Below, piece by piece: positions 15,912 to 64,000 of a stretch of DNA of 64,000 nt; the stretch's first letter is position 1, and the number at the start of each line of letters is the position of its first letter. Source of the stretch: an uncultured Gammaproteobacteria bacterium (GTDB taxonomy: Bacteria > Patescibacteriota > Patescibacteriia > Magasanikbacterales > UBA922). The notes below the pieces were generated by a model that was not told where the DNA came from, ran no database searches, and saw only the letters and a program-made list of their open reading frames with translations. The translations under genes and the position numbers were made by a program. Location of the stretch: NCBI GenBank assembly GCA_964435035.1, contig CAYSXR010000001.1, forward strand, positions 212,622 to 276,621, in the 5' to 3' direction.

Positions 15912-15926
15912 GTTTGAAATGATAGG

Positions 15927-16550
15927 ATGAGAGCATATTTTAGCCAAATTGTTATGCCAAAAACATCCTCAAAAAAGGCAAAGATGCAGAGTACAATTTC
16001 TGAGAAATTAGAACATTTTGGTATTACACCTCATGAAGTGATTGAGCTTTTTGAGAGTCTTGTAGAAAACACATGGAAAGAAAAGGATAAAGAGCTTATA
16101 CATCCGGGTAATTCTCTTGATAAGAGATTATTTGAAGCAATTGCAAAATTAGGCATCTCAGTAGCACTCGAAGCAGTACTTTTTCGTACCAAAGGAGAAA
16201 AGGTAGAAGTTTTTATGACGAAGCGAGGAAAAGATGAAAGTTTTCCCGGGGAGTGGCATTGTCCAGGCAGTGTGTTTCGTCCAGGAGAGTTTCCTCATAA
16301 TGTCCTAGCGCGGCTTGCAAAACAAGAATTTAAAACAAAAGTTGTTCTCGAAAGTGATTGTGTAGCTGATGTGTTTGTCAAAGAAATGCGAGGATGGTTT
16401 TTGTCACGAGTGTATCTGGTAAAGGTTGTAGGAAAGCCGACTTCAAAAGGAAAATGGTTTTCAGTTACCAAATTGCCAAAAGATACGGTGGCACATCATA
16501 AAAATTTTGTAATTCCAAAAGCACTGAAGGAATATAAAAAAATAAAATAA
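15927..16550 (+). CDS. Nudix-fold protein with degenerate Nudix box (low-GC native paralog of 15224–15808)
   Basis: FPGEWHCPGSVFRPGEFPHNVLARLAKQEFKTKV aligns with the high-GC copy over about 110 aa (GEWH.PG..FR.GE, KGKWF, VP, HH). The real start may be the internal ATG at 15984. Confidence 0.5.
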   Translation: MRAYFSQIVMPKTSSKKAKMQSTISEKLEHFGITPHEVIELFESLVENTWKEKDKELIHPGNSLDKRLFEAIAKLGISVALEAVLFRTKGEKVEVFMTKRGKDESFPGEWHCPGSVFRPGEFPHNVLARLAKQEFKTKVVLESDCVADVFVKEMRGWFLSRVYLVKVVGKPTSKGKWFSVTKLPKDTVAHHKNFVIPKALKEYKKIK

Positions 16551-17864: not shown

Positions 17865-20128
17865 TTGCTACTATACTATATATAGTCGCGTGGATGGTAC
17901 TCGGTGGATTTTCCATGACTGCGTATTCATCAATCTTTGCAAAAAATTGTTTTTTTCAATCAAGCACATTATTGTGTCCGGCAACATTAACACTCGGGCA
18001 GAAAATACTGAGCTTTTCGGCGGTCATATTCATGATTATCGCATTTCTTTTTTTTGGACGCATTATATGGAAATGGTTTAAAGAACAGAATGTTCCTTCA
18101 AAATGGAAGTATGGTCTCGGGTTTGGAATTATAGCGATCGCTCTATTGGTAGTGCCTTTTGGGTCAAGTGACATGAGTTATTATTTTGCTGCAGGCAGAG
18201 CACAGGTTGATGGACTGAATATCTATACCGAGGCCTGGCAAATGGAAAAAGATTTTGTCTATCCAGTGCCTCACGATACAATTATAGGATTTTCATATGG
18301 TCCTATAATTGCGCACATATTCAGAATGTTATATCAGGTATCAGGCGGGGAGATTGTGTGGTTCATGTTGTACTGGAAAATGTTCATGTTTAGTTGTATT
18401 GTTGTAGCTGTTCTTTTAATAAAAAAGTTGATACATATACTTGGTTCATTAATAGATAAGAAAGCTCTGTATGCTGTATTTCTACTGCAACCATTAGTAC
18501 TATTTGAAGTTCTGGTTAATGGGCATTTTGATGTATTGTGGATACTCGCAGTGCTTGCGGCAATTATCTATGCTCACAAAAAAAGATGGTCACTGGTTAT
18601 CCCATTGTTGATTGTGGGTGTTTGGATCAAATTTGTTCCAGCACTCATCGCACCTTTTTTTCTTTTATGGTGGTGGCAATCATTCACCAAAGAAAATTGG
18701 AAAATACAGATGTATGAAACAGTAGTAGGCGTGTCTCTTGGTGCTTTAGTAACTGTTGCTGCATGGTACTCGTATTGGGAGGGCTTCTCAGTGTTCAAAT
18801 CAGTCGTTATACAATCCAAGTGGGCTGTCCTAACTCTGTTTGCATCATTTTATTTTTCACTCAAGCCATTGTTTGTTAGTTGGTTTCAGGATGATGCACA
18901 CTGGGTACTTACTCGACTAGTGCACGGATTAGTATTTGCTATATTTGCATACTTCCTTTGGCCATATGTGAAAAAAGTTATTGCGATTACGCAAAAAAAA
19001 ATAACCTGGAGTACTGGTGAATATATAACTGCAATGTTTGTATTCTTATTAGTATATTTGTTGGTATGGCAAAAGTCATTTTTACCATGGTATGGGTTGT
19101 GGTTTTTACCATTTGGCTTGATATTGTACAGCATTTATAAGAATATTTTGGTGTTTCGAATTACGAGATGGCTTATGATTGCACCGTTTGTATACTATTT
19201 GTTATGGCTCATTGACTGGTATCTCACGAGAACTGACGCAGCAGCTGAGATATGGTTTTGTTGGTCAATAGTCGCAATCGTATTTCTGTATCCACTCCAC
19301 AATCTACTTGTGTGGAGGAAAAATTCTTTTGAAATTAAAGAATCTACCGCAGAACATCAGTTTTCAAAGGGCGAAAGTCCGATTAGTTTTGTGTTTCGTC
19401 AGATATATAAAATAGTTTTTGCTTATCCATTTAGTACATTTGTCGCAGGTATTTTTCTTTTTAAAAAATCATCAAACAAAGAAAAGAAAGAATATACGCA
19501 TTGTTTTATTATCACCTCAGTTATTTATCCAAAAAATACAGCATTGAGTTATGCGTCCACTCGGTCAGTCTATTCTCCAGAGAAAAGATATGAGCAGACT
19601 ATTGCTACTATTAATTCAATACGTACCAGAGTGCCTGATGCATATATTATTTGTATTGAGGCAGGGCTTGAATCAGATCCATTTGATTTGAAACATAGTG
19701 TTGATACCTATATATATGGGGGCAGTAATAGATGGGTGCGCCATGCATGCGACAGCAGTCTCAAAAGTTTGGGTGAAGCGGTGATGCTTTTATTCGCCTA
19801 TAAGAAGTTGCCTATAGCAGAGAGATATTTCAAAATAAGTGGGAGATATTGCCTAACAAATGATTTTAGTCTAGAGGATTGGGAGAAAAGTGAAATAGTA
19901 TATCACTATATTCGTCCTGATTTTATTTCAACAAGACTGTATGGCTTTGCTGCGACCATGAAGCAAGAATGGTATAAGGCACTTATTGCAGGTGTTCCAT
20001 ATCTATTCCTCGATTATCCGATAGAGTATACGCTTGCACGTTTTACTAAGAGAGAAAAAATTTCAAAAATTGAAAAAGTAGGTATCGAAGGCACTGACGC
20101 CACTAATGGGAAAAAGGTAAGAGAATAA
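17861..20128 (+). CDS. Polytopic membrane protein (about 14 TM, GT-C/DUF2029-like) fused to a C-terminal about 250-aa soluble domain of unknown function
   Basis: Hydrophobic N-terminal 500 aa with a long loop rich in aromatic residues. The C-terminal domain (SPEKRYEQTIATINSIRTRVPDAYIICIEAGL...YGFAATMKQEWYKAL) gave no family match by inspection. Confidence 0.45.
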   Translation: MIATILYIVAWMVLGGFSMTAYSSIFAKNCFFQSSTLLCPATLTLGQKILSFSAVIFMIIAFLFFGRIIWKWFKEQNVPSKWKYGLGFGIIAIALLVVPFGSSDMSYYFAAGRAQVDGLNIYTEAWQMEKDFVYPVPHDTIIGFSYGPIIAHIFRMLYQVSGGEIVWFMLYWKMFMFSCIVVAVLLIKKLIHILGSLIDKKALYAVFLLQPLVLFEVLVNGHFDVLWILAVLAAIIYAHKKRWSLVIPLLIVGVWIKFVPALIAPFFLLWWWQSFTKENWKIQMYETVVGVSLGALVTVAAWYSYWEGFSVFKSVVIQSKWAVLTLFASFYFSLKPLFVSWFQDDAHWVLTRLVHGLVFAIFAYFLWPYVKKVIAITQKKITWSTGEYITAMFVFLLVYLLVWQKSFLPWYGLWFLPFGLILYSIYKNILVFRITRWLMIAPFVYYLLWLIDWYLTRTDAAAEIWFCWSIVAIVFLYPLHNLLVWRKNSFEIKESTAEHQFSKGESPISFVFRQIYKIVFAYPFSTFVAGIFLFKKSSNKEKKEYTHCFIITSVIYPKNTALSYASTRSVYSPEKRYEQTIATINSIRTRVPDAYIICIEAGLESDPFDLKHSVDTYIYGGSNRWVRHACDSSLKSLGEAVMLLFAYKKLPIAERYFKISGRYCLTNDFSLEDWEKSEIVYHYIRPDFISTRLYGFAATMKQEWYKALIAGVPYLFLDYPIEYTLARFTKREKISKIEKVGIEGTDATNGKKVRE

Positions 20129-24264: not shown

Positions 24265-25149
24265 ATGAAAAAAAAGATGGTTTTTATAACAGGTGCGACA
24301 GGTTTTTTGGGACAACATCTGGTACCCCATTTGATGAAGCAGGGTTTTCGGGTTGCGGCATTAGTAAGAAACAAGAAAAAGATTACTATCTTTGGGCAGA
24401 ATGCTTCAAAAATCATATGGTGCACCAAAGAGAGTGAGATAGATCGGGTGTTCAATCAAGGGGTTGATTGTGTAATACATTGCGCGACAAGCTATGGGCG
24501 AGAAAAAGATACTTTTGCAGATGTGGTTGAGGCGAATGTTCTATTGCCTGTGAACATTCTCGAAAAAGCATGTATGTACGGCTGTCCATTATTTATTAAT
24601 ACGGATACATTCTTTCATGAAAAATTAGGACTTAAATCAAAAGAAAAAAGTTATATCACTACCAAAAAATTATTTCTTGAGCTTGCTCGGAGTATTATTC
24701 AGGGAAGTGACATGTGTTTTGTAAACATGCGTTTGGAGCAGATGTACGGCCCTTTTGATAGTCGTGATAAATTTGTTATGAGCATTATTCAACAGTTACG
24801 TGCCGGAATACCACAAATCAAATTAACTGAAGGAAAACAAAAAAGAGATATGGTGTTTGTTGGTGACGTTGCGCGTGCATATACTTCTGTCATTGCGCAT
24901 GCTGATACCCTGAAACAATGGGAAGAATTTGGTATAGGGACGGGCTCTTCGGTGTCAATAAAAAATATCATAACGTTTCTAAAAAAAGAGACAAAGTCTG
25001 ATTCGCATCTGTTGTGGGGGCAAATACCCTATCGAGAGCATGAGATAATGGACTCAAAAGCGCAAGTGAAAAATAATAAAAAGATAGAGTGGAAAGCAGG
25101 GGTGGGTTGGAAGCAGGGTTTACAGAAGACGATAGAAAGTCTGTTATGA
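24265..25149 (+). CDS. NAD-dependent epimerase/dehydratase (SDR)
   Basis: Rossmann motif ITGATGFLGQHL. About 294 aa. Confidence 0.6.
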   Translation: MKKKMVFITGATGFLGQHLVPHLMKQGFRVAALVRNKKKITIFGQNASKIIWCTKESEIDRVFNQGVDCVIHCATSYGREKDTFADVVEANVLLPVNILEKACMYGCPLFINTDTFFHEKLGLKSKEKSYITTKKLFLELARSIIQGSDMCFVNMRLEQMYGPFDSRDKFVMSIIQQLRAGIPQIKLTEGKQKRDMVFVGDVARAYTSVIAHADTLKQWEEFGIGTGSSVSIKNIITFLKKETKSDSHLLWGQIPYREHEIMDSKAQVKNNKKIEWKAGVGWKQGLQKTIESLL

Positions 25150-26972
25150 TTTATTGGCTGGTACAATCCATTGCAGTTTTTGTGGTAGGCGTGCTGCAGC
25201 TAATCCCATTTTCTGATGCGGTAAGCGCTCTTGCGGAAGGCGTTTTTTCACTCACTTCAACTACCGGGTACTCAATGGCGCGGAGTATTCTTTCGTATGG
25301 GATATACTTTGGTATCATCGCCGTTGGTGTGTGTATATACCTTTTTCGTAGAAAAAGTATACATACTGAGAAAACTGTAGAATTGCAGATAGTAAAGAGT
25401 TCTATCCCTAGAAAAGAGTGGTATATTGTTTTTGCAACAATCATCTTATTCGGATTTTTAGTCGTTCTCTTTAGGGAAAGAGTTTTTGATGCGCGCGTGA
25501 TATACAGTGAAGAGTTTTATAATTTGTCAGCACTGATCGAATTCCAGGGCAAAAGTTTCGATATTATATATCCATATTCAATTGGAAATTTGATCATGTT
25601 ACAAGTATTTGGCTGGTTGGGTATAAGCTCTTTTGTGTTCAAAATTATCTTAAACTCGCTTGCATTGATATTTCTCTATTGGGCAATTAGCACACTTGTT
25701 TCAAAAATAAAAACCAGAATGTTTGCTTTTTTTTGGGTGATTATATTTTTTGTACAACCTCTGATTTCGCCTTCGATGCATCGAAATCTGTTTAGGTTTT
25801 TATTACCCGCACTCATTCCAATTGTATTAGAATACATTGCACGTCGCACGTATTCAAAATCTTATACCAAAATATTGTTATTAATACTGTTCAATAGTGC
25901 GCTATTATTTTTTGGATCTGCTGATATTCTTGCACTAGGGTATATTATTTACGGACTTCACGTAGTTGGTTTATGGTTTGAAAAGAGAAGTATAAGAGAG
26001 ACTGTACTGTTTCTATATACCCCCTTTATAGGAGTGCTTGGCATGCTCAGTATTACGAACTTTACATATATCGAAATATTGAAGAATCAATTATCTTCAA
26101 TTGTGTACTATTCTGGATATGCGAATACAACACCGTATCTTAGTCTATTTCAGATTTTTTCCAGTGAAAGTATAACGTCTCTTATAAAACAACTCATTTC
26201 TGCGCCAATTTATTATCTGCCCATACTTGTGATGGGAAGTACTGTAGTATTCATTATTCTGTCGTACAGAAAATATGGACTTAATGCGGGATATTTTAGA
26301 TTACTCTTTTTATTGGTAGTATCATATATACTCTATTTCAGACAAAATTTAGGAGACGCAGGAATTGGGAGAATTGGTATTGCAAGTTCTGTCTTGATAT
26401 TTATTGTGCTTACACTCACTCATTTTCGTGAGCGGGCAGCAAAAAGTATCATACAATGGAGTGTGGTATTTTTTATCCTAATTACCTTAGTAAGTGCATA
26501 CTCTTTTTATTATTCAGCACTCGATTTGAAAAATAACTATTTTAAACAGCAAAATCATGGCGGAATGATGCCTTGTAAAGATTCATTTATAGGTGAAAAG
26601 TTGCGTTTTGCAGGGTTTGAATGGTGTGATGCGGGTGTGATTGCTGATTTTGCTGTACTCAGAGAAAAAGTTGGTGATAATTCTATATACGTATATGACG
26701 ACACATTTGCTCTATACTATATACTGGGAAAGCGGCCTGTAGCCTTGATTCCTGCGTATTACATGGCGTATAGTAGGCAGGATATACTTCTTGAGAAGAT
26801 GGATAATGATAACATTGAAATATTGGTATATCCGAAAGACCTTCATTTTTTTGGAGTACCAAGTGAGTATCTGTCTGATTTTAGATTGATGAGTAGGGTT
26901 AATGCATATCGGGATGAGTATTTTGGAGAGCCTATTGATACTCCTCTCTACACTCTTTACGAAAAAAAATAA
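25146..26972 (+). CDS. Polytopic membrane protein with C-terminal soluble domain (possible O-antigen polymerase or GT-C transferase)
   Basis: About 14 TM helices followed by an about 140-aa hydrophilic tail. The start ATG at 25146 overlaps the previous stop (ATGA). No family motif could be confirmed by eye. Confidence 0.4.
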   Translation: MIYWLVQSIAVFVVGVLQLIPFSDAVSALAEGVFSLTSTTGYSMARSILSYGIYFGIIAVGVCIYLFRRKSIHTEKTVELQIVKSSIPRKEWYIVFATIILFGFLVVLFRERVFDARVIYSEEFYNLSALIEFQGKSFDIIYPYSIGNLIMLQVFGWLGISSFVFKIILNSLALIFLYWAISTLVSKIKTRMFAFFWVIIFFVQPLISPSMHRNLFRFLLPALIPIVLEYIARRTYSKSYTKILLLILFNSALLFFGSADILALGYIIYGLHVVGLWFEKRSIRETVLFLYTPFIGVLGMLSITNFTYIEILKNQLSSIVYYSGYANTTPYLSLFQIFSSESITSLIKQLISAPIYYLPILVMGSTVVFIILSYRKYGLNAGYFRLLFLLVVSYILYFRQNLGDAGIGRIGIASSVLIFIVLTLTHFRERAAKSIIQWSVVFFILITLVSAYSFYYSALDLKNNYFKQQNHGGMMPCKDSFIGEKLRFAGFEWCDAGVIADFAVLREKVGDNSIYVYDDTFALYYILGKRPVALIPAYYMAYSRQDILLEKMDNDNIEILVYPKDLHFFGVPSEYLSDFRLMSRVNAYRDEYFGEPIDTPLYTLYEKK

Positions 26973-52526: not shown

Positions 52527-53561
52527 ATGAAACCTCTAAGTTATTATTTTGACCATGCAATCAAACAAGGAGCCTCAGACCTTCATCTTGTTGCACACGA
52601 AAGACCAGTAATTAGAGTACAGGGAGAGCTTGTGTCTATTGCTGATGTGGTACTCGGAGAAAAAGAGCTTGAAACAGCGGTATTAGCGATTCTTGATTCT
52701 TCAGAAAAGAAACGATTTGATGTAGAACATGATTTGGATTTTGGTTATACCTATAAGCAGGTGCGTTTTCGTATCAATATTCATCGACAGGAAGAATCAA
52801 TGGGACTTTCTGCACGTCTCGTTCCAACAGATATCCCGACAGCAGAAACCTTGCGGTTTGAAGAGCCTGTGTATGAGGCAACGAAATTGATTGATGGATT
52901 AGTTTTGGTGGTTGGTCCTACGGGAAACGGAAAATCAACAACGATTGCTCGAATGGTTGAAGAAATCAATACGTCGCGTAATGCACATATTATCACGATC
53001 GAAGATCCAATTGAATTTGTATTTGAAAGTAAAAAAAGTCTTATCGAGCAGCGAGAATTGGGAGGGGATACGCCATCTTTTGCTTCTGCTTTGAAACATG
53101 TCTTGCGTCAGGATCCTAATATTATTATGGTAGGTGAAATGCGCGATCCAGAAACTATTGCGACAGCACTCACTGCTGCAGAAACAGGGCACGTGGTGTT
53201 TTCCACACTTCACACGTCGAGTGCTGCAGAAGCAATTGAACGTATTGTTGATGTATTTGAAGGACCAAAACAAAAACAGGTATTAATCCAGCTTTCAAGC
53301 GTGCTTCGCTTTGTTATTGCACAACAATTGCTTCCAGGTGTAAATAATGCACGCATTGTGGCGAGAGAAATTTTGGTAAATACTCCTGCTGTTGCTAATT
53401 TGATTCGAGAGAATAATATTGCACAGATGGCAAGTGCAATTCAGACTGGTGCAAAAAATGGAATGATTACTATGGAACAGTCAGTAAAATTGTTGTATAA
53501 AGAAGGGTTAATCAGTGAAGAGACTGCGAGCAATCGTATGGGAAGAGATAGGCGTATTTAA
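52527..53561 (+). CDS. pilT: Type IV pilus retraction ATPase PilT
   Basis: Walker A GPTGNGKST, Walker B/Asp box IIMVGEMRD and the conserved His box TLHT. Length 344 aa. Confidence 0.85.
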   Translation: MKPLSYYFDHAIKQGASDLHLVAHERPVIRVQGELVSIADVVLGEKELETAVLAILDSSEKKRFDVEHDLDFGYTYKQVRFRINIHRQEESMGLSARLVPTDIPTAETLRFEEPVYEATKLIDGLVLVVGPTGNGKSTTIARMVEEINTSRNAHIITIEDPIEFVFESKKSLIEQRELGGDTPSFASALKHVLRQDPNIIMVGEMRDPETIATALTAAETGHVVFSTLHTSSAAEAIERIVDVFEGPKQKQVLIQLSSVLRFVIAQQLLPGVNNARIVAREILVNTPAVANLIRENNIAQMASAIQTGAKNGMITMEQSVKLLYKEGLISEETASNRMGRDRRI

Positions 53562-53575
53562 AAGAATTAACCCAT

Positions 53576-55402
53576 TTGTTAGTTTTTAAAGTTAATCGTA
53601 GCTTCATGCCACGTACTCACCGTGTGCGTCGAGTAGCACGCCATGATGTGCGCTCTCCGCATATCGACAATGAAGATTCAGAAAAATATCGCATACGGAT
53701 AGTTAAGCTTATTTTTTTGTTTTTAACTTCTATCGTGAGTGTGCGGCTTTTCATGATTATGATTATGCAGCATGGATTATATACAGCGCTTGCATCTAAT
53801 TCTCATGAGGTGTTTGCTGAACTTACACCTGAACGTGGACTGCTCTATCTGGAAAATAAAGATGGAAAGTTAACACCTCTTGCACTCAATCGAGATAAAT
53901 TTATTGTTTTTGCAGACACGAGAGGTTACGCTGATCCTAAAACATCGCTAGAGGTGGCAGAGGAGCTCGCATTGTTTTTTGGCTATGAGGATGAGCGAAA
54001 ATTTGAGGTATTAGAGCAGCTTCAAAAACCAAATGATGGATATGAGCAAATAGAAAAAAATATTGATGAAGACTTAAAAGCTCGACTTGAAGAACTAAAA
54101 CTACCTGGAATTCATTTTACTCGTTTTCGGGAACGTTACTACCCCGAAGGAGTACTTGCGGCATCGGTGGTGGGATTTGTAGGAAAAAATGAAAAGGGTG
54201 AGTCTGTGGGGAGATATGGAATTGAAGGGTATTGGGATGAGGTGATAGGAGGTGCCGGAGGAGTACTTGAGGGAATCAGAAGTGCGACAGGGGCATGGAT
54301 TCCGCTTGCAGGTAGGTCTTTTGAACAAGCTGTTGATGGGGCTAATCTGGTACTTACTCTTGATCGAACTGTCCAGTACGAAGTCTGTGAACGTCTGAGA
54401 GAGGCAGTTGCTACATATGGGGCTCAGTCTGGGTCGATCGTTATTATGGATCCAATGACAGGTTCTCTCACTGCCGTGTGTTCGGTACCTGATTTTAATC
54501 CCAATGAGTATGGTAAAGTGGAGAATATTTCAGTGTATAATAATCTTTCAATTTTTGAAGCATATGAGCCTGGATCGGTGTTCAAGCCAATCACTATGGC
54601 AGCAGCATTGGATACGGGAGATGTACAGCCAGATGATTATTTTTATGATTCAGGGAGTGTTGATGCTAATTGTACTAAGCCAATTCAGAATGCGGATAAT
54701 CGAAGTTATAAAGATCAAGATATGTCTGGAATTCTTGAACATTCGATTAATACCGGTGTAGTGTATATTGTAAAAAAAATAGGTAAAGAAGATTTTAGAA
54801 ATTATGTAGAAAAATTTGGATTTGGTACCAAAACAGGGATCGAGCTTGATACTGAGGTGGCAGGGACAATTGCGGCGTTATCAAAAAACAAAGGAGACTC
54901 GATCGACTGCTATACAGCGACCGCCTCATTTGGACAAGGAATCACGGTGACTCCATTGCAAATGGTAACTGCATTTTCAGCGCTTGCAAATGGTGGAAAA
55001 CTAATGAAGCCCTACATTGTGAAGCGTATTGAATATGCAAACGGAAAAGTAGATGAAGTTCATCCTATCGAAGTGAGGCAAGTAATAAATAAACATACTG
55101 CTGATACGGTGGCAGCGATGATGGTACGAGTGGTAGATTTTAGTGAAGGTAAGCGTGGACAAGTGCCGGGGTATTATATCGCAGGTAAAACAGGTACAGC
55201 ACAAATTGCAGGTCCCGGAGGATATAGTGCAGAGACGAATCACTCATTTATTGGATTTGGCCCCGTAGACAATCCTAGGTTTGTAACGTTGATAAGACTG
55301 GAAAAACCACAGCGTTCATACGCAAATATTACGGCTGCACCACTGTTTGCTGAGATCACGAAATTTCTCATGTCCTACTATCATATTCCGCCTGAACGAT
55401 AG
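53576..55402 (+). CDS. Penicillin-binding protein 2 / FtsI-type peptidoglycan transpeptidase
   Basis: N-terminal TM anchor, dimerisation domain, and transpeptidase motifs SVFK (SxxK), SIN (SxN) and KTGTA (KTG). Confidence 0.8.
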   Translation: MLVFKVNRSFMPRTHRVRRVARHDVRSPHIDNEDSEKYRIRIVKLIFLFLTSIVSVRLFMIMIMQHGLYTALASNSHEVFAELTPERGLLYLENKDGKLTPLALNRDKFIVFADTRGYADPKTSLEVAEELALFFGYEDERKFEVLEQLQKPNDGYEQIEKNIDEDLKARLEELKLPGIHFTRFRERYYPEGVLAASVVGFVGKNEKGESVGRYGIEGYWDEVIGGAGGVLEGIRSATGAWIPLAGRSFEQAVDGANLVLTLDRTVQYEVCERLREAVATYGAQSGSIVIMDPMTGSLTAVCSVPDFNPNEYGKVENISVYNNLSIFEAYEPGSVFKPITMAAALDTGDVQPDDYFYDSGSVDANCTKPIQNADNRSYKDQDMSGILEHSINTGVVYIVKKIGKEDFRNYVEKFGFGTKTGIELDTEVAGTIAALSKNKGDSIDCYTATASFGQGITVTPLQMVTAFSALANGGKLMKPYIVKRIEYANGKVDEVHPIEVRQVINKHTADTVAAMMVRVVDFSEGKRGQVPGYYIAGKTGTAQIAGPGGYSAETNHSFIGFGPVDNPRFVTLIRLEKPQRSYANITAAPLFAEITKFLMSYYHIPPER

Positions 55403-55411
55403 GAATTTTAC

Positions 55412-55440
55412 GTTGACAAAGAAGGGGGGATTGGGTATAG
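55412..55440 (+). promoter_or_regulatory. Consensus sigma-70 promoter TTGACA-N17-TATAGT upstream of tRNA-Glu
   Basis: Hexamers read from the sequence. Spacer is 17 nt. It lies 130 nt upstream of the tRNA. Confidence 0.5.
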
Positions 55441-55487
55441 TATGGCTCGTTCTTGAAGGCGGAAAAGGCTTGAAATGCCTAAAAGGC

Positions 55488-55523
55488 TAAATTAGAATAA
55501 TTAGGTTAATTAGAGTAATTAGA
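55488..55523. repeat. Four tandem 9-bp repeats TAATTAGNN (AATTAG at 55489, 55498, 55507 and 55516)
   Basis: Exact 9-bp periodicity, read directly from the sequence. Located between the promoter and the tRNA. Confidence 0.5.
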
Positions 55524-55570
55524 AATTTGTATTATTGCTTTTTTGTTCCTTGTCACTTGTTAGTTAATAT

Positions 55571-55643
55571 GGCCCGTTCGTCTAGTGGCTAGGACGCTAG
55601 GTTCTCATCCTAGTAACAGGGGTCCGATTCCCCTACGGGCTAC
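55571..55643 (+). tRNA. tRNA-Glu (anticodon CUC)
   Basis: Hand-folded cloverleaf. Acceptor stem GGCCCGT/ACGGGCT, D-arm GTCT/GGAC, anticodon stem CTAGG/CCTAG with loop TTCTCAT (anticodon CTC), T-arm AGGGG-TCCGATT-CCCCT, discriminator A. A 3' CCA is not encoded (the sequence reads CCCA). Confidence 0.75.
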
Positions 55644-57120
55644 CCAAGGGGAAATTTTCTCGCGACAGCACGATGCTGAACCACTTTTTCGGCTCGGTTG
55701 ACACGAGTTTCCCGATTGCAGAAATGTCCGAATATAGGGATTTGAGGAGTGTCCGACGCTTCTCTTTTTCGTATTTCGGGTACTGATCAGCCAATAGATC
55801 AAAGACCTTCACGATTCGCGCACGGGTCGGCGTCTGCGACGCGATGTCATCGGTCTGAAGTTGTTGCTCGAGCTTTCTCGTTCCGAGCATCAGCTCGGTC
55901 TTCATCTTCGTGTAGAGCTGTTCCTCAATGATGCCGCCGATGAATGACCGAGTGAGGCGCTCCAGCGCCTCGTTCTTCTCGTTGAGTTCAAGGCGGGCAC
56001 GGGCGCGACCGCGCTCAACGTCGCGCTCTTCATCGCCGTACATGCGTTCGACGACATCGAGCACGAGGTCGCGCTCCTCCGACGAGAGGATCATGCGCTT
56101 GAGGTCGCGTTCAATCACCGCGTCGAGCAGCTCTTCGCGGATGCAGACGGTCGGGTGCCCTCGTGTGTGACAGCGGTAGTAGACGACCTTTCGCTTGTGC
56201 TCGCCGATGAGGAAGCGCTTGCAGTGACCGCATCGAGACATCCGCTGGTACAGGTACTTTGGCTCCGCGATGAAGAGGTGCGGGTGTTTCCGCCGTTGAC
56301 GGATTTGCCTGACGACCTCGAAGATCCCGGCCGGTACGATCGCCTCGTGTTGGCCGGCGAAGAGCTCACCGCGGTAGGGGATGAAGCCTGCGTAGAACGG
56401 GTTGTCGAGCATCTTCGCGATCCTCGACCGGGTTTTGAACGCGCCGCCCTTGCTCTTCAACCCAAGCTCGCGGCCGACCTCGGTCAGCTGGTCGAGGGTA
56501 TAGGCACCGGTCGCGTAGCGCTCGAAGAGCTCCAGGATGCTCGGGGCGCGCTCCGGGTCCGGGATCTTCCTGCCGCGTTCGCCCTTCGGCGTTTCTGGCG
56601 GCGGGTTCAAGTACCCGAAGGGGGCGTTTCTCGGCCAGTATCCTTGTCTCATCCGTCCGAGGTTGCCCTTCAGGATCTCGCTCCTGAGGTTCCGGATGAA
56701 GTGAACCGCAACCGCGGCGAGCATGTCCATGGTGAGACGGCCGCCCGAGTCGGCACTGTCGAGACCTTCGGACGCGAAGGCGATGTAGTGCCCGGCGTCC
56801 ATGAGTTCCGAGATCGTCACCCAATCCCGGAGGTTCCGACTCGACCGGTCAACTTTGTGGAACACGACGCCGTCGGCGTCGCCCTTACCGAGTCGCTTCA
56901 CGAGGTCGACGAAACCCGTTCGACCTGCCTTGGCTGCGGACTCGACGTCTTCGATGACGTCTTTGACGACAAGGCCACGACGGGCGCAGAACTCCTGGAT
57001 GATGCGGCGCTGCTCAAAGAGCGAGGCGCCATGCACCTGGTCGTCGGAGGAAACCCGGACGTAGCAGAACACGGTTGAGGGCGCTGCACGACGGGTGCCA
57101 AATGTTGAAAAATGTGGCAT
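55633..57120 (-). CDS. Large serine recombinase (resolvase-type catalytic domain plus recombinase domain, zinc ribbon and coiled coil)
   Basis: Catalytic domain VFCYVRVSSDDQ (Ser nucleophile) ... VFHKVDRSSRNLRDW. Recombinase domain GYWPRNAPFGY. Zinc ribbon CGHCKRF...YYRCHTRGHPTVC. The start is set at the ATG (MPHFSTF) at 57120, giving about 495 aa. Confidence 0.8.
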   Translation of the reverse strand: MPHFSTFGTRRAAPSTVFCYVRVSSDDQVHGASLFEQRRIIQEFCARRGLVVKDVIEDVESAAKAGRTGFVDLVKRLGKGDADGVVFHKVDRSSRNLRDWVTISELMDAGHYIAFASEGLDSADSGGRLTMDMLAAVAVHFIRNLRSEILKGNLGRMRQGYWPRNAPFGYLNPPPETPKGERGRKIPDPERAPSILELFERYATGAYTLDQLTEVGRELGLKSKGGAFKTRSRIAKMLDNPFYAGFIPYRGELFAGQHEAIVPAGIFEVVRQIRQRRKHPHLFIAEPKYLYQRMSRCGHCKRFLIGEHKRKVVYYRCHTRGHPTVCIREELLDAVIERDLKRMILSSEERDLVLDVVERMYGDEERDVERGRARARLELNEKNEALERLTRSFIGGIIEEQLYTKMKTELMLGTRKLEQQLQTDDIASQTPTRARIVKVFDLLADQYPKYEKEKRRTLLKSLYSDISAIGKLVSTEPKKWFSIVLSRENFPLGSP

Positions 57121-57331
57121 AATATCTGAATTACAGAATGACAGAGGGTCCTTCGAGCTTATCGTGTCCGCTCGATTCGTAACACCGGCACAAGCGCCCC
57201 CCTCGTTCGCGAGTTGCGGTGTTTTTTTGTTTGAGATATCCACATGCTGTGCGCTCGGGCGAGAAACTTGACCCGGGCATTTGTGCCCCTGACAGTATCG
57301 CGCCCTCTTGCAGTACGATTTCCACACGCCT

Positions 57332-57544
57332 ATGCGACATCTCCAATTTGACGACGAGCAACTCGCCAAGAAACTTGCAGCCGCCTATCCGACACTTTCG
57401 GCGGATGAACGGACCGCAGTCTTGGTCGAGCTCATGCTCTTCGTGCGCGCACTCGCCGGCCTGGTCGAGCGGGATACCTCCCGCGGTCCGGGCGAGGACG
57501 CCGAATTCCCTTCCAAGTCGGAGCCTGCCGCACCCGGCACTTAA
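57332..57544 (+). CDS. Small hypothetical protein (70 aa), divergent from the recombinase; speculative recombination directionality factor
   Basis: MRHLQFDDEQLAKKLAAAYPTLSADERTAVLVELMLFVRALAGLVE has a protein-like amphipathic composition, unlike the surrounding Arg-rich frames. No family was assigned. Confidence 0.2.
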   Translation: MRHLQFDDEQLAKKLAAAYPTLSADERTAVLVELMLFVRALAGLVERDTSRGPGEDAEFPSKSEPAAPGT

Positions 57545-58593
57545 GTCACGTAAACATTGCATGTGCATCGTCTATGAGGTCTCGCCGGGGCGGCCGCGTA
57601 CCACGCGGCCGAAGGATTCCATATCCAAATCAGTGGCGTGTCATCCGCCGTCTTCGAGGGTTCACGCAACGCGATGTTGCGCGGTTCCTTGGTCATCTCG
57701 ACACGTGTCAGTGAGGGTCAGGAAGCGCTGTAGGACGGCGAGTAGCGCGTAACGCCGAGTTTGTGGCCGGCGAGTTGAGACAGGCGTAGCCGGGAGGTCT
57801 CGAAGTCGGGGAGCTGGCGCGCTAACGCCGGCCCCCCTGGACGGGGCGACTACAGTCGTCGCCTCGTCCACGCGGAGGATGCCGCAAGCCGCGCAGGACG
57901 GCCAGGGCTTCGAGACGGAGGCCGCTGGACACCGCCCGTCGCTACTCCTGCCGCGCCTGCGGAAGACACGTCACGATCTGCCCGCGCTGCGATCGGGGCA
58001 ACATCTACTGCCTCGGCTGCGCCCCGAAGCGCCGGACGGAGAGGCTGCGGCGCGCTCGGAGGACGTATCGCCGCACGCCCGAAGGTCGTCGCGAACATCG
58101 TGACGCCGAGCGGCGCAGGCGCAGGCGAAAGGCGGCTCCGCACGCAATCGTGGGGGATCTGGGTTCCGCGGTCGCGTCGTCGGTCGCAGGCTCGGACCTG
58201 CCCTCGACCTCCAACCCGGTCGAGGCAGAGGTGACCGATGTATCGATGGAAGATCGCCGTGGAACCGACGGCCACGAACACGAAGCTGCTGATGACGGAC
58301 CCGGACGGCAACGAGCTCCTCAAGGCGGCGCTGCCGTCGACGGCCAACCACCCACGCGCTCTCTTGACCCTGCTCGAGGGCCTGGCGCTGTGGGCCGGCC
58401 AGCCTCTCACCGCTGCGATCTCTGCGGGGCCGTCGTTGCCGAGGCACGTCGACTCGGCCCTCTTCGGAGCGGATCTCTTTCCGTGCGACAGCGTGCTCGT
58501 GCACTACGAAGTGGTCGAGGGCCGCCGACGTCGCCGGACTCTGCGCGGCGTGGGTGACTTCCGGCAGCTGCGCCTCGTGCAGCGGAGGTGGGC

Positions 58594-60093
58594 ATGATCT
58601 CCGACGAGCTGAAATCGAAGATCCGCCGCCTCTACCATGCCGAGCAGTGGCCGATCGGCACGATCGCGAGGGAGCTCACCCTGCACCACAGCACGGTGCG
58701 GCGCGCGCTGCTCGGCGATGGGGTGCCGCTCGCGTCGCTGCCGACGCGCAAGTCGAAACTCGATCCGTACCTGCCGTTCGTCATCGACGTGCTGGACAAG
58801 TACCCGGAGGTCACGGCGAGCCGGGTCTACGACATGGTGCGGGAGCGCGGCTACACGGGCGCGCGCGACCACTTCCGCGCGCTGGTCGCTCGCCACCGCA
58901 AGCCCAAGGCGGCCGAGGCTTTCCTGCGCCTGTCGACCGTTCGGGGCGAAGAGGCCCAGGTCGACTGGGGCCACTTCGGCCACATCATGATCGGCGGCGC
59001 GCGCCGGCCGCTCGTGGCGTTCGTGATGGTGCTGTCGTGGTCGCGCTGGGCGTGGCTGCGCTTCGGCGCGGACATGCGCATGGGCAGCTTCCTCGAGCAC
59101 CACGAGGCGGCATTTCGGGCCTGGGGCGGCGTGCCGCGCGTGATCCTCTACGACAACCTGAAGTCGGCGGTGACCCAGCGCATCGGCGACGCGATCGTGT
59201 TCAACGCGGACCTGTCGGCGTTCGCGAGCCACTACGGCTATGACGCGCGCCCGGTCGCGCCCTATCGCGGCAACGAGAAGGGGCGGGTGGAGCGGACCAT
59301 TCGTGATGTGCGCACCTCGTTCTTCGCTGCGCGCACCTGGGCCGATCTCGCAGACCTGAACGCGCAGGCCGAGCGATGGTGTCGTGAGGTGCGTGGGCTC
59401 CGCACGCATCCCGACGACCGCACGCTCACGGTGGGTGCCGCGTTCGCCGAGGAGCGGGAGGTGCTTCGCGCGCTCCCCGCCGACGTGTTCCCGGTCGCCG
59501 ACCGCGTCGAGGTGAAGGCCGGCAAGACGCCGTACGTGCGCTTCGACGGCAACGACTACAGCGTCCCGCACGATCGTGTTCGGCGGTCGCTGACCGTCAT
59601 GGCGACGAGCGACACGGTGCGCGTCATGGATGGCCAGGACGTCATCGCCATGCACACGCGCTCGTGGGACAAAGGCGCGCAGATCGAGGACGCAGCGCAC
59701 ATCGCGGCTCTCGTCGAGCGCAAGCGCGAGGCCCGCAACGCGCGTGGGCTCAATCGTGTGTTCGTGGCGGTGCCGGTCGCTCAGGAGTTCGTGCGGCGGC
59801 TCGCCGAGCGCGGCGGCAACATCGGCAATGCCGTCGTTCGCCTGGGGGAGATCCTCGACGCCTTCGGTGCCGAGGAGCTCGCGATGTCCGTCGATGAAGC
59901 GATCGCGATGGACGCGCCGCACATCGCGGCGGTTCGTCAGATCCTCGACCGGCGTCGGCGGGACGTGGGGCTCCCGGCGCCGATCGCCGTGGCCCTGCCC
60001 GATGACCCGCGCATTCGAAACATGGTCGTGCGGCGGCCCTCGCTCGAAGCCTACGATGCGCTGAAGGAACCCACGGAGGACTGTCATGAGTGA
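58594..60093 (+). CDS. istA: IS21-family transposase IstA
   Basis: N-terminal HTH (IGTIARELTLHHSTVRRAL). Integrase-core DDE region (AQVDWGHF...LSWSRWAWLRF...VILYDNLKSAV...YRGNEKGRVER). About 500 aa. Confidence 0.85.
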   Translation: MISDELKSKIRRLYHAEQWPIGTIARELTLHHSTVRRALLGDGVPLASLPTRKSKLDPYLPFVIDVLDKYPEVTASRVYDMVRERGYTGARDHFRALVARHRKPKAAEAFLRLSTVRGEEAQVDWGHFGHIMIGGARRPLVAFVMVLSWSRWAWLRFGADMRMGSFLEHHEAAFRAWGGVPRVILYDNLKSAVTQRIGDAIVFNADLSAFASHYGYDARPVAPYRGNEKGRVERTIRDVRTSFFAARTWADLADLNAQAERWCREVRGLRTHPDDRTLTVGAAFAEEREVLRALPADVFPVADRVEVKAGKTPYVRFDGNDYSVPHDRVRRSLTVMATSDTVRVMDGQDVIAMHTRSWDKGAQIEDAAHIAALVERKREARNARGLNRVFVAVPVAQEFVRRLAERGGNIGNAVVRLGEILDAFGAEELAMSVDEAIAMDAPHIAAVRQILDRRRRDVGLPAPIAVALPDDPRIRNMVVRRPSLEAYDALKEPTEDCHE

Positions 60094-60829
60094 CGAACTC
60101 GAGCGGCGTCTCCGCGCCATAGGCCTCATCGGGCTGGCTGCGAGATGTGACGAAATCTGCAACGAGCCGTGGCTCGAGCGAGTGATCGCCATCGAGACCG
60201 AAGAGCGTCGACGTCGCGGCCTCGATAGCCGCCTCAAGAGCAGCAAGCTCGGACGCTTCAAACCGATGGCCGACTACGACTGGAGCTGGCCGCGCGCCAT
60301 CGATCGTCAGGCCATCGACGAGCTGTTCACGCTGCGCTTCCACGCCGAGGGAGCCAACATCATCCTCGTCGGGCCCAGCGGGGTCGGCAAGACGATGATC
60401 GCCAAGAACCTCGCACATGCCGTCATTCGTGCAGGCAGAACCGCGCGCTTCACGACCGCGAGTGCGATGCTCAACGAGCTCGCCGGCCAAGACAGCCTGA
60501 CGGCGCTATCCCGCGCGTATCGACGCTACACGAGCCCCGCGGCCCTGGTCATCGACGAGCTCGGGTACATCGCCTACGGCAACCGCCATGCAGACGTCCT
60601 CTACGAAGTCGTCGACCGCAGGCACGAGCTCGCGCGCAGCGTCATCGTGACCACCAATCGAGCCTTCAAAGAGTGGGGCGACCTCTTCCCGAACGCCACT
60701 TGCGTCGTACCGCTCGTCGACCGTCTCGTCCACAAGAGCGACATCATCGAGATCGACGGCGACTCTTACCGCCTGAAAGAAGCCCAGGCACGAGCCCGTA
60801 GCCGCAAGGCCGGTCCGACCACGGCGTGA
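60086..60829 (+). CDS. istB: IS21-family helper ATPase IstB
   Basis: Walker A GPSGVGKTM, Walker B LVIDELGY and the sensor VVTTNRAFKEWGDLF. It overlaps the istA stop (ATGA-type coupling). Confidence 0.85.
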   Translation: MSDELERRLRAIGLIGLAARCDEICNEPWLERVIAIETEERRRRGLDSRLKSSKLGRFKPMADYDWSWPRAIDRQAIDELFTLRFHAEGANIILVGPSGVGKTMIAKNLAHAVIRAGRTARFTTASAMLNELAGQDSLTALSRAYRRYTSPAALVIDELGYIAYGNRHADVLYEVVDRRHELARSVIVTTNRAFKEWGDLFPNATCVVPLVDRLVHKSDIIEIDGDSYRLKEAQARARSRKAGPTTA

Positions 60830-61080
60830 GCAACGGGACTGCAGCTCGCCGCCGTCAACAGCGGCGTCGAGCGCTACTCGCCGTTTTCACGCGCTCTTCG
60901 ACCACCGCCTACAACACGGACTCGTACTACGACATCGAGCGGGGAACGCGGTTCCCGCGAGCCCGCAACCTCATGTTGCTGCTCCGACTGTTCGGGGTCA
61001 CGCTCGAGCAGGTCTATCCTGACCTTGCTTGGGGAGCGGATCGCGACATCGACGCGCTCCGACATCGCCTTACCCGATGA
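60826..61080 (+). pseudogene. Possible truncated XRE-type HTH gene fragment immediately downstream of IS21
   Basis: YDIERGTRFPRARNLMLLLRLFGVTLEQVY resembles the third helix and C-terminal part of an XRE HTH. The N-terminal part is not HTH-like. Confidence 0.2.
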
Positions 61081-61319
61081 CACGTACCCTCAACCCTATG
61101 AAACGAAACCCTACGGGTCGCCTGAAGCACGAGCTGCTGCACTCCATCCTCCGCGATGAGCGCTGGCATTCGACCAGTGAACTTGTCCGCCGCGTCGGCC
61201 ACACCTTCGCCGGCGCCAAGTGGAAGCTCACTGGTTACGGCTACTCGATCGAGAAGCGACGTCACCCGACGAAGCCGCGCCAGTGGCAGTACCGCCTCAC
61301 CGATCAGGCGGCGGGCTAG
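61077..61319 (+). CDS. Small basic hypothetical protein (80 aa), possible winged-helix DNA-binding protein
   Basis: MTRTLNPMKRNPTGRLKHELLHSILRDERWHSTSELVRRVGHTF... No family assigned. Confidence 0.2.
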   Translation: MTRTLNPMKRNPTGRLKHELLHSILRDERWHSTSELVRRVGHTFAGAKWKLTGYGYSIEKRRHPTKPRQWQYRLTDQAAG

Positions 61320-61922
61320 CGCTCGCCGGCGTCGACGGTGAAATGCGCGGCGCACTCCCAAGTTCCTTCACCGTTCGACTTCACCGCCTCGACCCGGTTC
61401 GCTCTATCCAGCGAACCCCTGCCCCACCCGACGGGCGACAACAATGGCTACAACAACGGGTTAAATGAGCGCGCCCGTCGGGGGCCGTGCCCCCGACTAC
61501 TCGTCGCCACTGCACAACACCTAACCGACCCTGACCAGGCAGAGTCGAGGTGATGGCGCGCGCCGAGTAGTCGGGCGCCCCGTGCCGGGTCACCCCGACG
61601 GGACGCGCGCGGGCTACCCCGACGCTATCGCGATCGGGAACCCGCAACTCCGAACGTCGAACGCGTTGAGCTGACCATCCTGCTGTCACCCTTCATCGCC
61701 TGACATCACCGACCGCCACGACACCTACCGGGTCGGGCCGCGGAACGGCTACCTCGGACTCACGCGTGCGAGGAGGGGAAACGAGGCGAAGACAGCCGAC
61801 ATCGCGGAACATCGCGGCGCGCGTTCTGATGACCATCGTCACCGTGAACGCACGTCGCCAACTCGATGATGGTCATCGCCGACCACGCTCGAGCTTTGTC
61901 AACCGCGCAACGACCCCTACTC

Positions 61923-62801
61923 ATGATCATCCAATCCCGCGACACCCAAATCCTCCGCTCGATCTTCCGGCATCGGTTCCTCACCACCGAGCATCTCCAC
62001 GCACTTCATTTTGTGGACCGCTCTGTTCGGGCGGCGCAGGCCCGCTTGAAGGAGCTCCATGACGACAACTACCTCGACCGGACCTACGTCCTGCCGCCCG
62101 TTGACGGTCTCCGGAGGCGAGTGCGGCCCGTCTACTCAATGGCACGCGCCGGCGCCGAGGTTCTCGCAGCCGTGCTTGGCATTCCGCCCCGTGCGATTCC
62201 GCACACCAAGAAGGCGACGCAGGTCGGCTACCATCACATGTTGCACGAGCTCGTGGTCGCCGACCTGCTCGTCTCCGGTGAGGCGTCACTCGGTCGCGCG
62301 CCAGACGTTCGCTCGGTCGCGACGCTCCGCGATCATGACCTTCGGTCACTGCTGGCCGTCGCGCGCTTACATCAGCATGCTGCCACCGGCGTTGTTCCAG
62401 ACGGTGCGTTCATCGTCGACGCGGTGGGCTTGCCTGCCCCGACCACCATCTACGTCGAGGTCGTGCACGCTGGCGTCAAAGGCGGGAACGCGCGCCTGGT
62501 CGAGAAGCTCGAGCGCTATCTGCAGCTCCTCCGCACGGGGTTCTTCACCTCGGTTTTCAACCACCGGCGTGTCCGCGCGCTCGCGGTCGTCTCGCCATCG
62601 GACGAACGAGTCGAGAACCTCCGCGTGCTCGCAGAGCGCAGACTCCGTCACGGTCGAAGGTTCGTGTGGTTCGCGGTAGCGCCCAGACATTCAGCGCGCA
62701 CATACCCGCCCACGACCTTCACCGTCGAGAGTCTCGCCCAAACCGAGTTCGTCGACATCGAGGGCACACGCCATCACCTCGACGTCAACGCACTTCGCTA
62801 A
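61923..62801 (+). CDS. Replication-relaxation (Replic_Relax) family protein
   Basis: The N-terminal winged helix QILRSIFRHRFLTTEHLHALHF...RAAQARLKELHDDNYLDR matches the Replic_Relax signature. C-terminal PDGAFIVDAVGL...YVEVVHAG is present. ATG at 61923. Confidence 0.55.
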   Translation: MIIQSRDTQILRSIFRHRFLTTEHLHALHFVDRSVRAAQARLKELHDDNYLDRTYVLPPVDGLRRRVRPVYSMARAGAEVLAAVLGIPPRAIPHTKKATQVGYHHMLHELVVADLLVSGEASLGRAPDVRSVATLRDHDLRSLLAVARLHQHAATGVVPDGAFIVDAVGLPAPTTIYVEVVHAGVKGGNARLVEKLERYLQLLRTGFFTSVFNHRRVRALAVVSPSDERVENLRVLAERRLRHGRRFVWFAVAPRHSARTYPPTTFTVESLAQTEFVDIEGTRHHLDVNALR

Positions 62802-62821
62802 TTAGTCATAATCTCTATCGA

Positions 62822-64000
62822 ATGTATGCCCATCACCGTCAACATCCAAATCAGCGATCATCGAGAAGACAAGCTCCACGTTCGGCCAGCTTGGCCGCCT
62901 ACGACGCTTCCGGTCGCGCCCTTATCATTCTCGGCGAGGCCCTCTACCGGCGGACCGCGACGCGCTTTGGGTTACTCCCCGAGGACCGACTGCGCCATGC
63001 CTGGATCGTTGGGAAAACCGGGACCGGGAAGTCGACCCTGGTTCGCTCGATGGTGGCGCAAGACCTTCAAAGCGACGTGGGGCTTGCGATTATTGACCCC
63101 CACGGGTCGCTCGCTGCCGAGGTCGACGAGCTCGCGACGGCGTCCAGGCGTGAACGCATCATCCGCATCTCACCTGGCATCGCGGAGAAGACACCACCCT
63201 TCAACGTGTTCCGACGAGGCACGCAACCTGTGACCGAGTCTGGGCTTCTCGCCTCAGAGCTGATCTCGGTGTTCAAGCACCGGTGGGCCGACTCGTGGGG
63301 CCCGCGCCTCGAACACTACCTCAGGTTCGGTATCCTCGCAGTCGCCGCGCATCCGCGCGCAAGCCTGGGTATGCTTCATCGCTTCTATCTCGACGACGAC
63401 GTTCGAGCTCGCGTCGTCGACCACGTCCGTGACCCGTACGTGCGGGACGTCTGGACCCGCGAGTTTGCCGCCCTTCCACCGCGTCTCCGAGCCGAAGCCC
63501 TTGCCCCGATCATGAACAAACTTGGCAGCTTGGTTGCGCATCCGATTGCCGGACCGATGCTCCGCGGAGAACGTTCACGGCTCGATTTCGACCACTACCT
63601 TGAGAAGCGGGTCGTCCTCATCGTCGACCTCGCCGTCGGCCGTCTCGGCGAGGACATGGCGGCGATGATCGGTTCCCTCATACTGTCGTCTCTCTACCTC
63701 GCCTCCATGCGCCGCGGCAGAAGCTCGCCACCGTTCTTCTGTTACCTCGACGAGTTCCAGCACTTTGTGTCGGGCTCGATCCCGACGGTCCTCTCTGAAT
63801 CCCGCAAGTACGGCTTTGGTCTGGTGCTTTCGCACCAGTACCTGGGGCAGCTCGGAGAAAGTATCCGCGAGGCCGTGCTCGGGAACGTCGGAAGCCGAAT
63901 GTACTTCAGGGTGGGAGCCGAGGATGCCCGTGTGCTCGGGCCAACTGTTGAGCCAATCTACACGGCCGCCGACCTCATGACGCTTCCCGCGTACCACGCG
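62822..64000 (+). CDS. TraD/TraG/VirD4-like type IV coupling ATPase, 3' partial
   Basis: The ATG-62822 frame was translated by hand and is open to the window end. Walker A IVGKTGTGKST, Walker B-like VVLIVDLA...CYLDEFQHF and the TraG-D_C-like LVLSHQYLGQL...NVGSRMYFRVGAEDARVLG are present. It is absent from the supplied ORF track because it has no in-window stop. Confidence 0.6.
   Translation, partial: MYAHHRQHPNQRSSRRQAPRSASLAAYDASGRALIILGEALYRRTATRFGLLPEDRLRHAWIVGKTGTGKSTLVRSMVAQDLQSDVGLAIIDPHGSLAAEVDELATASRRERIIRISPGIAEKTPPFNVFRRGTQPVTESGLLASELISVFKHRWADSWGPRLEHYLRFGILAVAAHPRASLGMLHRFYLDDDVRARVVDHVRDPYVRDVWTREFAALPPRLRAEALAPIMNKLGSLVAHPIAGPMLRGERSRLDFDHYLEKRVVLIVDLAVGRLGEDMAAMIGSLILSSLYLASMRRGRSSPPFFCYLDEFQHFVSGSIPTVLSESRKYGFGLVLSHQYLGQLGESIREAVLGNVGSRMYFRVGAEDARVLGPTVEPIYTAADLMTLPAYHA

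Follow-up and report, generated by a model that had tools for sequence, protein, structure and literature searches.

The last 8.4 kb of a 64,000-nucleotide stretch of contig CAYSXR010000001.1 (assembly GCA_964435035.1; hereafter the window) raises the question of whether the GC-rich DNA that begins at a tRNA-Glu(CTC) gene is integrated in the low-GC genome to its left, or whether the contig is chimeric. We find that this right arm very probably represents a real insertion into a Candidatus Magasanikbacteria chromosome: the left part of a small, GC-rich integrative and probably mobilizable element that occupies the 3' end of tRNA-Glu(CTC). An initial annotation had posed the same two alternatives, and two empty sites, a second occupied site and a Logan contig that runs across the junction favour a real integration of foreign DNA. 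In 500-bp windows, GC content is 0.390 ± 0.043 in the left arm (1-55500) and 0.651 in the right arm (56000-64000), and third-codon GC is 0.28-0.31 in three host genes versus 0.74-0.89 in right-arm genes. A check of tetranucleotide signatures, proposed in the initial annotation, confirms that the arms differ strongly, with a correlation of 0.98 between the halves of the left arm and of -0.48 between left and right. The jump that had been placed exactly at the 3' end of the tRNA holds in size, from 0.39 to 0.65, but not in sharpness, as the first ~300 bp past the tRNA are 45-55% GC and values of 60% and above are reached near 55950; those 300 bp are the 3' end of a large serine recombinase (LSR) gene.

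The host is a Candidatus Magasanikbacteria bacterium of the candidate phyla radiation (CPR), a group of ultra-small bacteria. Relatives of its PBP2 are found in metagenome-assembled genomes (MAGs) of Candidatus Magasanikbacteria / Magasanikiibacteriota at 94%, 87%, 77%, 59% amino acid identity and lower, and more distant matches fall in other CPR lineages. Several third-party re-assemblies bear the label 'uncultured Gammaproteobacteria', which we do not trust, since MAGs named as Magasanikbacteria share both the protein family and the synteny. In content, the left arm is typical of CPR, with O-antigen-ligase-like open reading frames (ORFs), many large ORFs that cannot be annotated, a PilT-like ATPase and PBP2.

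Comparison of the tRNA with related genomes points to integration. The tRNA-Glu(CTC) gene, the sole tRNA in the window, is 100% identical over 74-75 nt, up to the discriminator base at 55643, to that of two loci at which the site is empty: L002, which matches the window at 84% nucleotide identity over 11.9 kb up to the tRNA (PBP, 94%), and L008, a more distant relative (PBP, 77%). At both, the identical tRNA is followed directly by AAAATAAATAATCC...GGATTATTTATTTT, an AT-rich terminator hairpin. The sequence common to the window and the empty sites ends after ...CGGGCTAC (55643), and the empty sites place the boundary at this discriminator base. Another Magasanikbacteria MAG, L003 (PBP, 87%), represents a second occupied site: its host flank is 73-78% identical to the window at the nucleotide level, its tRNA is identical, and from the same nucleotide onwards it carries a diverged copy of the LSR (69% amino acid and 72% nucleotide identity) in a region of 0.56-0.62 GC. 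The geometry recurs at other tRNAs. In Candidatus Falkowbacteria (L038), the 3' end of a 46%-identity LSR overlaps the 3' end of tRNA-Leu(TAG) by 22 nt, with 0.58-0.64 GC on the LSR side and 0.39-0.52 beyond, and two distant LSRs (31%) end inside tRNA-Arg (L046, 62-nt overlap) and tRNA-Pro (L047, 22-nt overlap). We favour integration because an assembly mis-join would need to arise repeatedly, across different pairs of genome and element and at different tRNAs, with the geometry unchanged each time.

A further LSR of 31% identity, on L048 (Ga0172379_10001955; 10001-13675), ends in the tRNA-like antisense residues AGNRTRV, and ARAGORN finds no tRNA at its end; the compositional contrast is reversed here, with 36-44% GC over 10 kb on the recombinase side and 57-61% past the LSR 3' end. 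An inverted repeat surrounds attL in the window, TTCCCCT in the tRNA T-stem and AGGGGAA in the element. The T-arm itself (55615-55635) reads AGGGG-TCCGATT-CCCCT, which would put a C at T-loop position 55, where nearly all tRNAs have U (pseudouridine 55), and L002, L003 and L008 share this sequence. The 22-nt tRNA 3' end that the initial annotation had proposed as a guide to attR occurs only once in the window. Such a direct-repeat test fits tyrosine integrases and need not hold for a serine recombinase; attR lies past the window end. The P0124 locus, tried as a guide to attR, is uninformative: it belongs to a different and larger element, which has an LSR of another kind and does not adjoin a tRNA.

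The enzyme at the element edge has the architecture of a large serine recombinase, with its start taken as the ATG at 57120. Pfam gives Resolvase (PF00239; 1.4e-22), Recombinase (PF07508; 8.5e-8, 32.8 bits, above cut-off) and Zn_ribbon_recom (PF13408; 1.6e-4, 22.4 bits, just under the 25.3 cut-off). In an alignment of LSR relatives (A1), the catalytic motif YVRVSSDDQ of a serine-nucleophile resolvase domain is conserved and the zinc-ribbon cysteines, CxxC...YYRCH, are invariant. This order of Resolvase, Recombinase and zinc ribbon with coiled coil, the catalytic serine motif and a gene that adjoins the att site are shared with the serine integrases phiC31, Bxb1, A118, TP901-1, SPbeta, CcrAB and XisF. 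Large serine integrases of phages and integrative and conjugative elements (ICEs) usually target protein-coding genes; the window LSR ORF instead crosses the junction into a tRNA.

The last codons of the window LSR (GSP) and its stop codon lie within tRNA-Glu, and five sequences, those of the window, P0001 (L003), P0003 (L038), P0004 and P0010, end at or just past a conserved RExF..G.P motif. The last residues of these LSRs are antisense translations of the tRNA (GSP-stop, GGREGI-stop, GPWRSRTADLRVANAALYQLS and GPMGI-stop), and the group of L046, L047 and L048 behaves in the same way past an ANRPK motif. Wherever an inspected LSR gene adjoins a tRNA, the part of the ORF contributed by the element reaches the junction without a stop codon of its own. 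The LSR frame always ends inside the tRNA, and the attachment site would therefore overlap the 3' end of the recombinase gene. LSR relatives with no adjoining tRNA (L036, L039) and several others run 44-89 residues further, with a PxRxxxRT-type motif; PDB sequence matches cover the catalytic domain only and hence hold no information on this C-terminal tail. Two models fit these ends. In the first, attP lies within the LSR ORF, and on integration the tail would give way to a few residues encoded by the tRNA; for this subclade we regard it as a serious but tentative possibility, and it cannot be general because full-length members of the family are also found on chromosomal contigs of Mb size. 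In the second, the element would bring its own copy of the tRNA 3' end overlapping the ORF end, and the protein would be unchanged in both states. Mapping the crossover from the nucleotides of L043, L036 and L039 near their GxP codons gave only a 7-nt match to the tRNA, GTAGCCC (L039), which is not decisive. A remodelled C-terminus has a parallel in mycobacteriophages, in which Broussard et al. are said to have described, in 2013, integration-dependent immunity with attP inside the repressor gene. Both systems have an att site inside a coding sequence at a tRNA target, and integration can alter the C-terminus; there, a tyrosine integrase acts and a repressor is remodelled, whereas here it is the serine recombinase itself whose remodelling is hypothesised. 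A coherent LSR clade is predicted to use tRNA genes at at least five loci. Such use is rare among serine integrases: it was recorded for 14 of 297 in a 2020 survey, which called it previously unreported and in need of proof (PMC7192596).

Table 1. Features at the tRNA-Glu junction and in the right arm of the window.
Feature	Position	Strand	Evidence or remark
PBP2 gene	53606-55402		170 bp upstream of tRNA-Glu
tRNA-Glu(CTC), integration target	55570-55646	+	ARAGORN; Rfam 57.6 bits
Left junction (attL)	55621-55665	.	Alignment of window, L002, L003 and L008; nucleotide view
Large serine recombinase (LSR), 495 aa	55633-57120	-	Pfam; NCBIfam XisF/CcrB-like; alignment A1
Xre-type helix-turn-helix (HTH) regulator, N-terminal fragment cut by insertion sequence	57574-57705	+	tblastn with HTH proteins of L036, L039 and L038
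IS21-family insertion sequence, 3,208 bp, 68% GC	57706-60913	+	Ends TGTCAG...CCTACA
IstA transposase	58588-60093	+	NCBIfam transpos_IS21 258 bits; Pfam Mu-transpos_C_2, rve
IstB helper ATPase	60086-60829	+	Pfam IstB_IS21 (PF01695) 9.5e-52
Xre-type HTH regulator, C-terminal fragment	60914-61080	+	tblastn; weak HTH_3 match
Conserved small module ORF, 80 aa, no assigned function	61077-61319	+	53% identity to 74-aa ORF of L036; called on L035
Replic_Relax (PF13814), putative MobC-class relaxase or replication initiator	61866-62801	+	Pfam 3.4e-19
TraD/TrwB-like P-loop ATPase	62822-64000, off window end	+	Translation; L034 gene call; Pfam

Pfam, NCBIfam and Logan gene calls uphold the genes first assigned to the right arm: besides the LSR and the Replic_Relax protein, these are an IS21 element and an ATPase of the TraD/TrwB type (Table 1). 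The Replic_Relax family (PF13814) belongs to the PD-(D/E)XK superfamily (PMC3424549) and was treated as a MobC-class relaxase superfamily in a survey of streptococcal integrative mobilizable elements (IMEs; PMC5357655); homologues in the same gene order are 58% (L042) and 32-35% (L036, L039) identical. The ATPase is complete on Logan contig L034, where it is 414 aa long and ends at 64066, 66 nt past the window. Its sequence contains a Walker A motif (GKTGTGKST), shows no evident membrane segment at the N terminus and is 77% identical to that of its counterpart in L042 and 51% to those of its counterparts in L036 and L039. DUF87 and TrwB_AAD_bind score above their cut-offs and TraG-D_C just under its own, all with low scores, and FtsK_SpoIIIE fails at 17.6 bits against a cut-off of 24. 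Together, these two proteins are candidates for a relaxase and a coupling protein, albeit with low scores and no evident membrane anchor.

The same module accompanies the closest LSR relatives (44-51% identity) in L036, L037 and L039-41. The LSR comes first. Transcribed divergently from it are a 62-68-aa ORF, an Xre-type HTH protein of 91-119 aa and an ORF of 74 aa, followed by a 131-191-aa ORF in the opposite orientation. Replic_Relax is next, then a TrwB/DUF87 ATPase (412-438 aa), a small ORF and a DnaG-like primase that has a CHC2 zinc finger and a Toprim domain. The window follows this order as far as it reaches, and the GC profile of L039 gives a rough estimate of ~8-9 kb for the module. 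No VirB4 or other mating-pore genes were found in 55647-64000, nor in the ~20 kb around the L036 and L039 modules, so that the term 'conjugative' in the initial annotation finds no backing in the 8.4 kb that the window shows or at the related loci retrieved. As far as is visible, and in the related modules fetched, the element has its own integration module and a relaxase candidate and no mating pore. It is best read as an IME rather than an actinomycete integrative and conjugative element (AICE), because the related loci lack mating-pore genes and the AICE alternative fails on translocase type and taxonomy.

A working model follows from this gene content. The LSR, encoded at the element edge and reading into the tRNA, would insert the element, and the overlap of the attachment site with the LSR 3' end would make its last residues and stop codon tRNA sequence. 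The rest of the module, as synteny shows, comprises a divergent Xre-type regulator, a small ORF, the putative Replic_Relax relaxase (MobC-class, PD-(D/E)XK) and the soluble TrwB/TraD-like ATPase, followed in relatives by the DnaG-like primase. After excision, relaxase and ATPase would process and deliver the DNA via a pore supplied from elsewhere, since none is seen in the element.

A second related element is present in the sample of the junction contig (L042, Logan SRR12762285_197390, 1-2943), with the Replic_Relax and ATPase identities to the window given above; P0126, the LSR cluster-mate linked to it, shares at least 90% identity with the recombinase of L003 and lies on a 38,118-bp NCBI contig that also carries P0123. 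The L036 primase is cut short (155 aa) and followed by a Resolvase-domain gene (293 aa), and L037, otherwise 100% identical to L036, diverges at the primase and has a longer ORF there (L036 4400-4500 versus L037 1-311); this break probably reflects another insertion into the element, brought in by a second recombinase. A larger relative of the element, on L058 (Replic_Relax, 35%), has two Replic_Relax genes together with a tyrosine and a serine recombinase; its TrwB-like ATPase is split between two called ORFs (191 and 235 aa; 10950-12278), which suggests a frameshift or pseudogene.

In the window, the element itself received a later insertion: a 3.2-kb IS21-family element transposed cleanly into the Xre regulator gene and split it. 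Residues 14-41 of the relatives' HTH proteins match 57619-57702 and residues 41-90 match 60913-61062 by tblastn. The insertion sequence has the istA-istB pair, with an overlap of 8 nt, 54-nt imperfect terminal inverted repeats (57724-57777 and 60842-60895), both ends starting with TGT, and a 5-bp target duplication, ACACG, at 57701-57705 and 60914-60918. Excising it in silico with one ACACG copy restores GHLDTDSYYDIERG, in register with HLNxxxYxDIExG of the relatives. The insertion has inactivated the putative regulator of the element. IstA has relatives of 87-93% identity on 2-4-kb contigs; the named ones are at 71% (Planctomycetes according to NCBI, Myxococcales in nr), 61-66% (Myxococcota) and 58% (Planctomycetaceae), and matches on proteobacterial plasmids reach 55%.

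Where such an element came from is a separate question. The initial annotation had proposed an actinobacterial-type ICE and had noted that a real integration would fit an episymbiont acquiring DNA from an actinobacterial host. AICEs such as pSAM2 are ~9-24 kb in size and GC-rich, often sit in tRNA genes and combine an integrase and a replication function with just one ATPase for DNA translocation. Their translocase is a membrane-anchored FtsK/SpoIIIE-type TraB, and they carry Spd and RepSA, RepAM or prim-pol genes. The high GC of the window element, and a size and content (integrase, replication/relaxase protein, single ATPase) that superficially recall AICEs, speak for a recent acquisition of this kind, as do ATPase matches to Streptomyces, Embleya and Rhodococcus replicons, which are weak, at only ~28%, and the description of Replic_Relax mainly from Firmicutes and Actinobacteria (PMC3424549). 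We nevertheless consider it very unlikely. The ATPase belongs with TrwB_AAD_bind/DUF87/TraG-D_C, below the FtsK_SpoIIIE cut-off and with no membrane segment evident, rather than with TraB; no Spd, RepSA or RepAM genes are seen; and neither the host nor the closest relatives are actinobacterial. The taxonomic check that had been proposed gives no actinobacterial best match for any of the four proteins, and those relatives that carry names belong to CPR, Alphaproteobacteria, Myxococcota and Planctomycetota.

The nearest relatives of the LSR, as of the whole module, are in CPR MAGs and metagenome contigs. Named LSR matches are to Falkowbacteria (46%) and to Litorimonas and Rhizobiales (Alphaproteobacteria; 36-37%), and a scan of JGI metagenomes with the LSR gave one close match only, a 2-kb contig. 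Among plasmids, the LSR (34%) and the ATPase (35%) find their best match on one and the same Sulfitobacter plasmid; the two genes lie 1.5 kb apart on it, with no Replic_Relax gene, and Replic_Relax has no plasmid matches at 1e-5. On these affinities, the donor is not identifiably actinobacterial. Leaving out the insertion sequence, the element is 62% GC and the host 39%, and the GC-rich composition together with the affinities of the relatives would place the element in a pool that also lives in GC-rich bacteria. The GC of the element and the affinities of IS21 suggest time spent in such bacteria, a reading of composition rather than a demonstrated donor. A more elaborate scenario, which we think unlikely, would have a GC-rich mobilizable family shuttle between GC-rich bacteria and ultra-small CPR cells, possibly physical partners, with a tRNA-3'-end LSR clade that carries attP in its own frame and a swap of the 44-89-residue PxRxxxRT tail as the switch between integrating and resident forms.

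An assembly chimera, in which a contig of a GC-rich organism was joined to a CPR contig via a shared tRNA-Glu k-mer, fares slightly worse still, and we hold it to be highly improbable. Genes for tRNAs are classic chimera points, the composition break is extreme, Logan contigs break repeatedly within the right arm, and the L002 and L003 contigs end within a few kb of the locus. Against this, L003 has the same junction in a different genome/element pair, both sides of which have diverged by 22-28%; L038 repeats it with another tRNA in another CPR lineage; the tRNA equals that of the empty-site relatives up to the discriminator base; and the entry of the LSR frame into the tRNA at every such locus inspected is a signature of site-specific integration, not of a random join. 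Logan contig L001 (run SRR12762285), moreover, matches window 53111-59397 at 100% and crosses both the tRNA junction and the left insertion-sequence junction, in a k=31 unitig-type assembly with no branch at the tRNA. Contig L035 crosses the right insertion-sequence junction, L034 extends the window by 131 bp past 64000, and a Replic_Relax protein identical to that of the window (P0121) is recorded on a 276,756-bp NCBI contig, which itself was not inspected. On L001 (2523-3968, equal to window 55633-57078), the LSR is mis-called as a 153-aa fragment and a 303-aa ORF on the opposite strand, and because of this exact-protein look-ups of the LSR with two start codons came back empty. Weaker than either alternative is a prophage or phage-plasmid remnant with a serine integrase, which we regard as close to negligible: large serine recombinases are typical phage integrases, an Xre-type regulator beside int is phage-like and one distant relative (L053) is on an IMG/VR contig, but the window arm and related loci are free of capsid, terminase, tail and lysis genes and instead encode a relaxase-family protein and a coupling-type ATPase, and the IMG/VR scan with the LSR gave only 4 weak matches, none closer than 34%.

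Several points weigh against an intact, mobilizable element integrated in this chromosome. Only attL and two empty attB sites are seen, and because neither attR nor the excised form (attP) is, the size of the element, its exact crossover and its ability to excise are inferred. Contiguity is judged from assembled contigs, run SRR12762285 may hold the same reads as the source assembly, and L003 may stem from the same study. The relaxase activity of Replic_Relax is putative, assigned by family only, and with its regulator disrupted the window copy may be deregulated or dead. A GC excess of 25 points with no amelioration would be odd if the element were long resident, and the divergence between the window and L003 is similar for host (73-78% nucleotide identity) and element (72%). 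The element in these two genomes may have been inherited vertically since their split or acquired independently; the similar divergences fit the former, and the evidence as a whole favours neither.

Two further observations concern the left arm. GC rises to 0.49-0.52 at 14000-16000, inside the AT-rich arm, over a minus-strand HAD-hydrolase gene and a NUDIX-domain ORF, which may be another small foreign patch or merely locally biased genes. Three large ORFs have no Pfam match at 1e-4: 1977-5603 (1208 aa), 17861-20128 (755 aa) and 25089-26972 (627 aa).

The closest known systems are the IMEs of Firmicutes, which pair their own coupling protein with an integrase of the serine or tyrosine type and a relaxase that is non-canonical or MobC-class (PF13814) (Coluzzi et al. 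2017, PMC5357655). The window element resembles them in its small size, edge integrase, Replic_Relax/MobC-class relaxase candidate, own coupling-type ATPase, site-specific insertion and lack of visible mating-pore genes. It differs in its CPR host, in a GC content 25 points above that host, in an apparently soluble, TrwB/DUF87-like ATPase (412-438 aa in modules of this type) that is not TcpA, in the DnaG-like primase of such modules and in a serine recombinase that targets a tRNA 3' end. Firmicutes already provide examples of IMEs that encode a MobC-class relaxase and a coupling protein of their own (PMC5357655); new here is the combination of a soluble TrwB-like ATPase, a DnaG-like primase and a tRNA-targeting LSR, in CPR hosts and with a 25-point GC excess.

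For users of the assembly, the contig need not be split as chimeric, and its last 8.4 kb are unsuitable for taxonomic or metabolic inference on the CPR host. Site-specific enzymes of this kind, whose targets are small and conserved, have practical appeal as integration tools, and the predicted clade adds a coherent group of tRNA-using serine recombinases to a use that the 2020 survey had called unreported (PMC7192596). Mobile elements of CPR/Patescibacteria are poorly documented, and a narrow keyword search of the literature yielded no report of a CPR element that is integrative and mobilizable or conjugative. A foreign element 25 GC points above its host, with a mapped site and empty-site controls, provides direct evidence of recent inter-phylum DNA flow into these reduced genomes.

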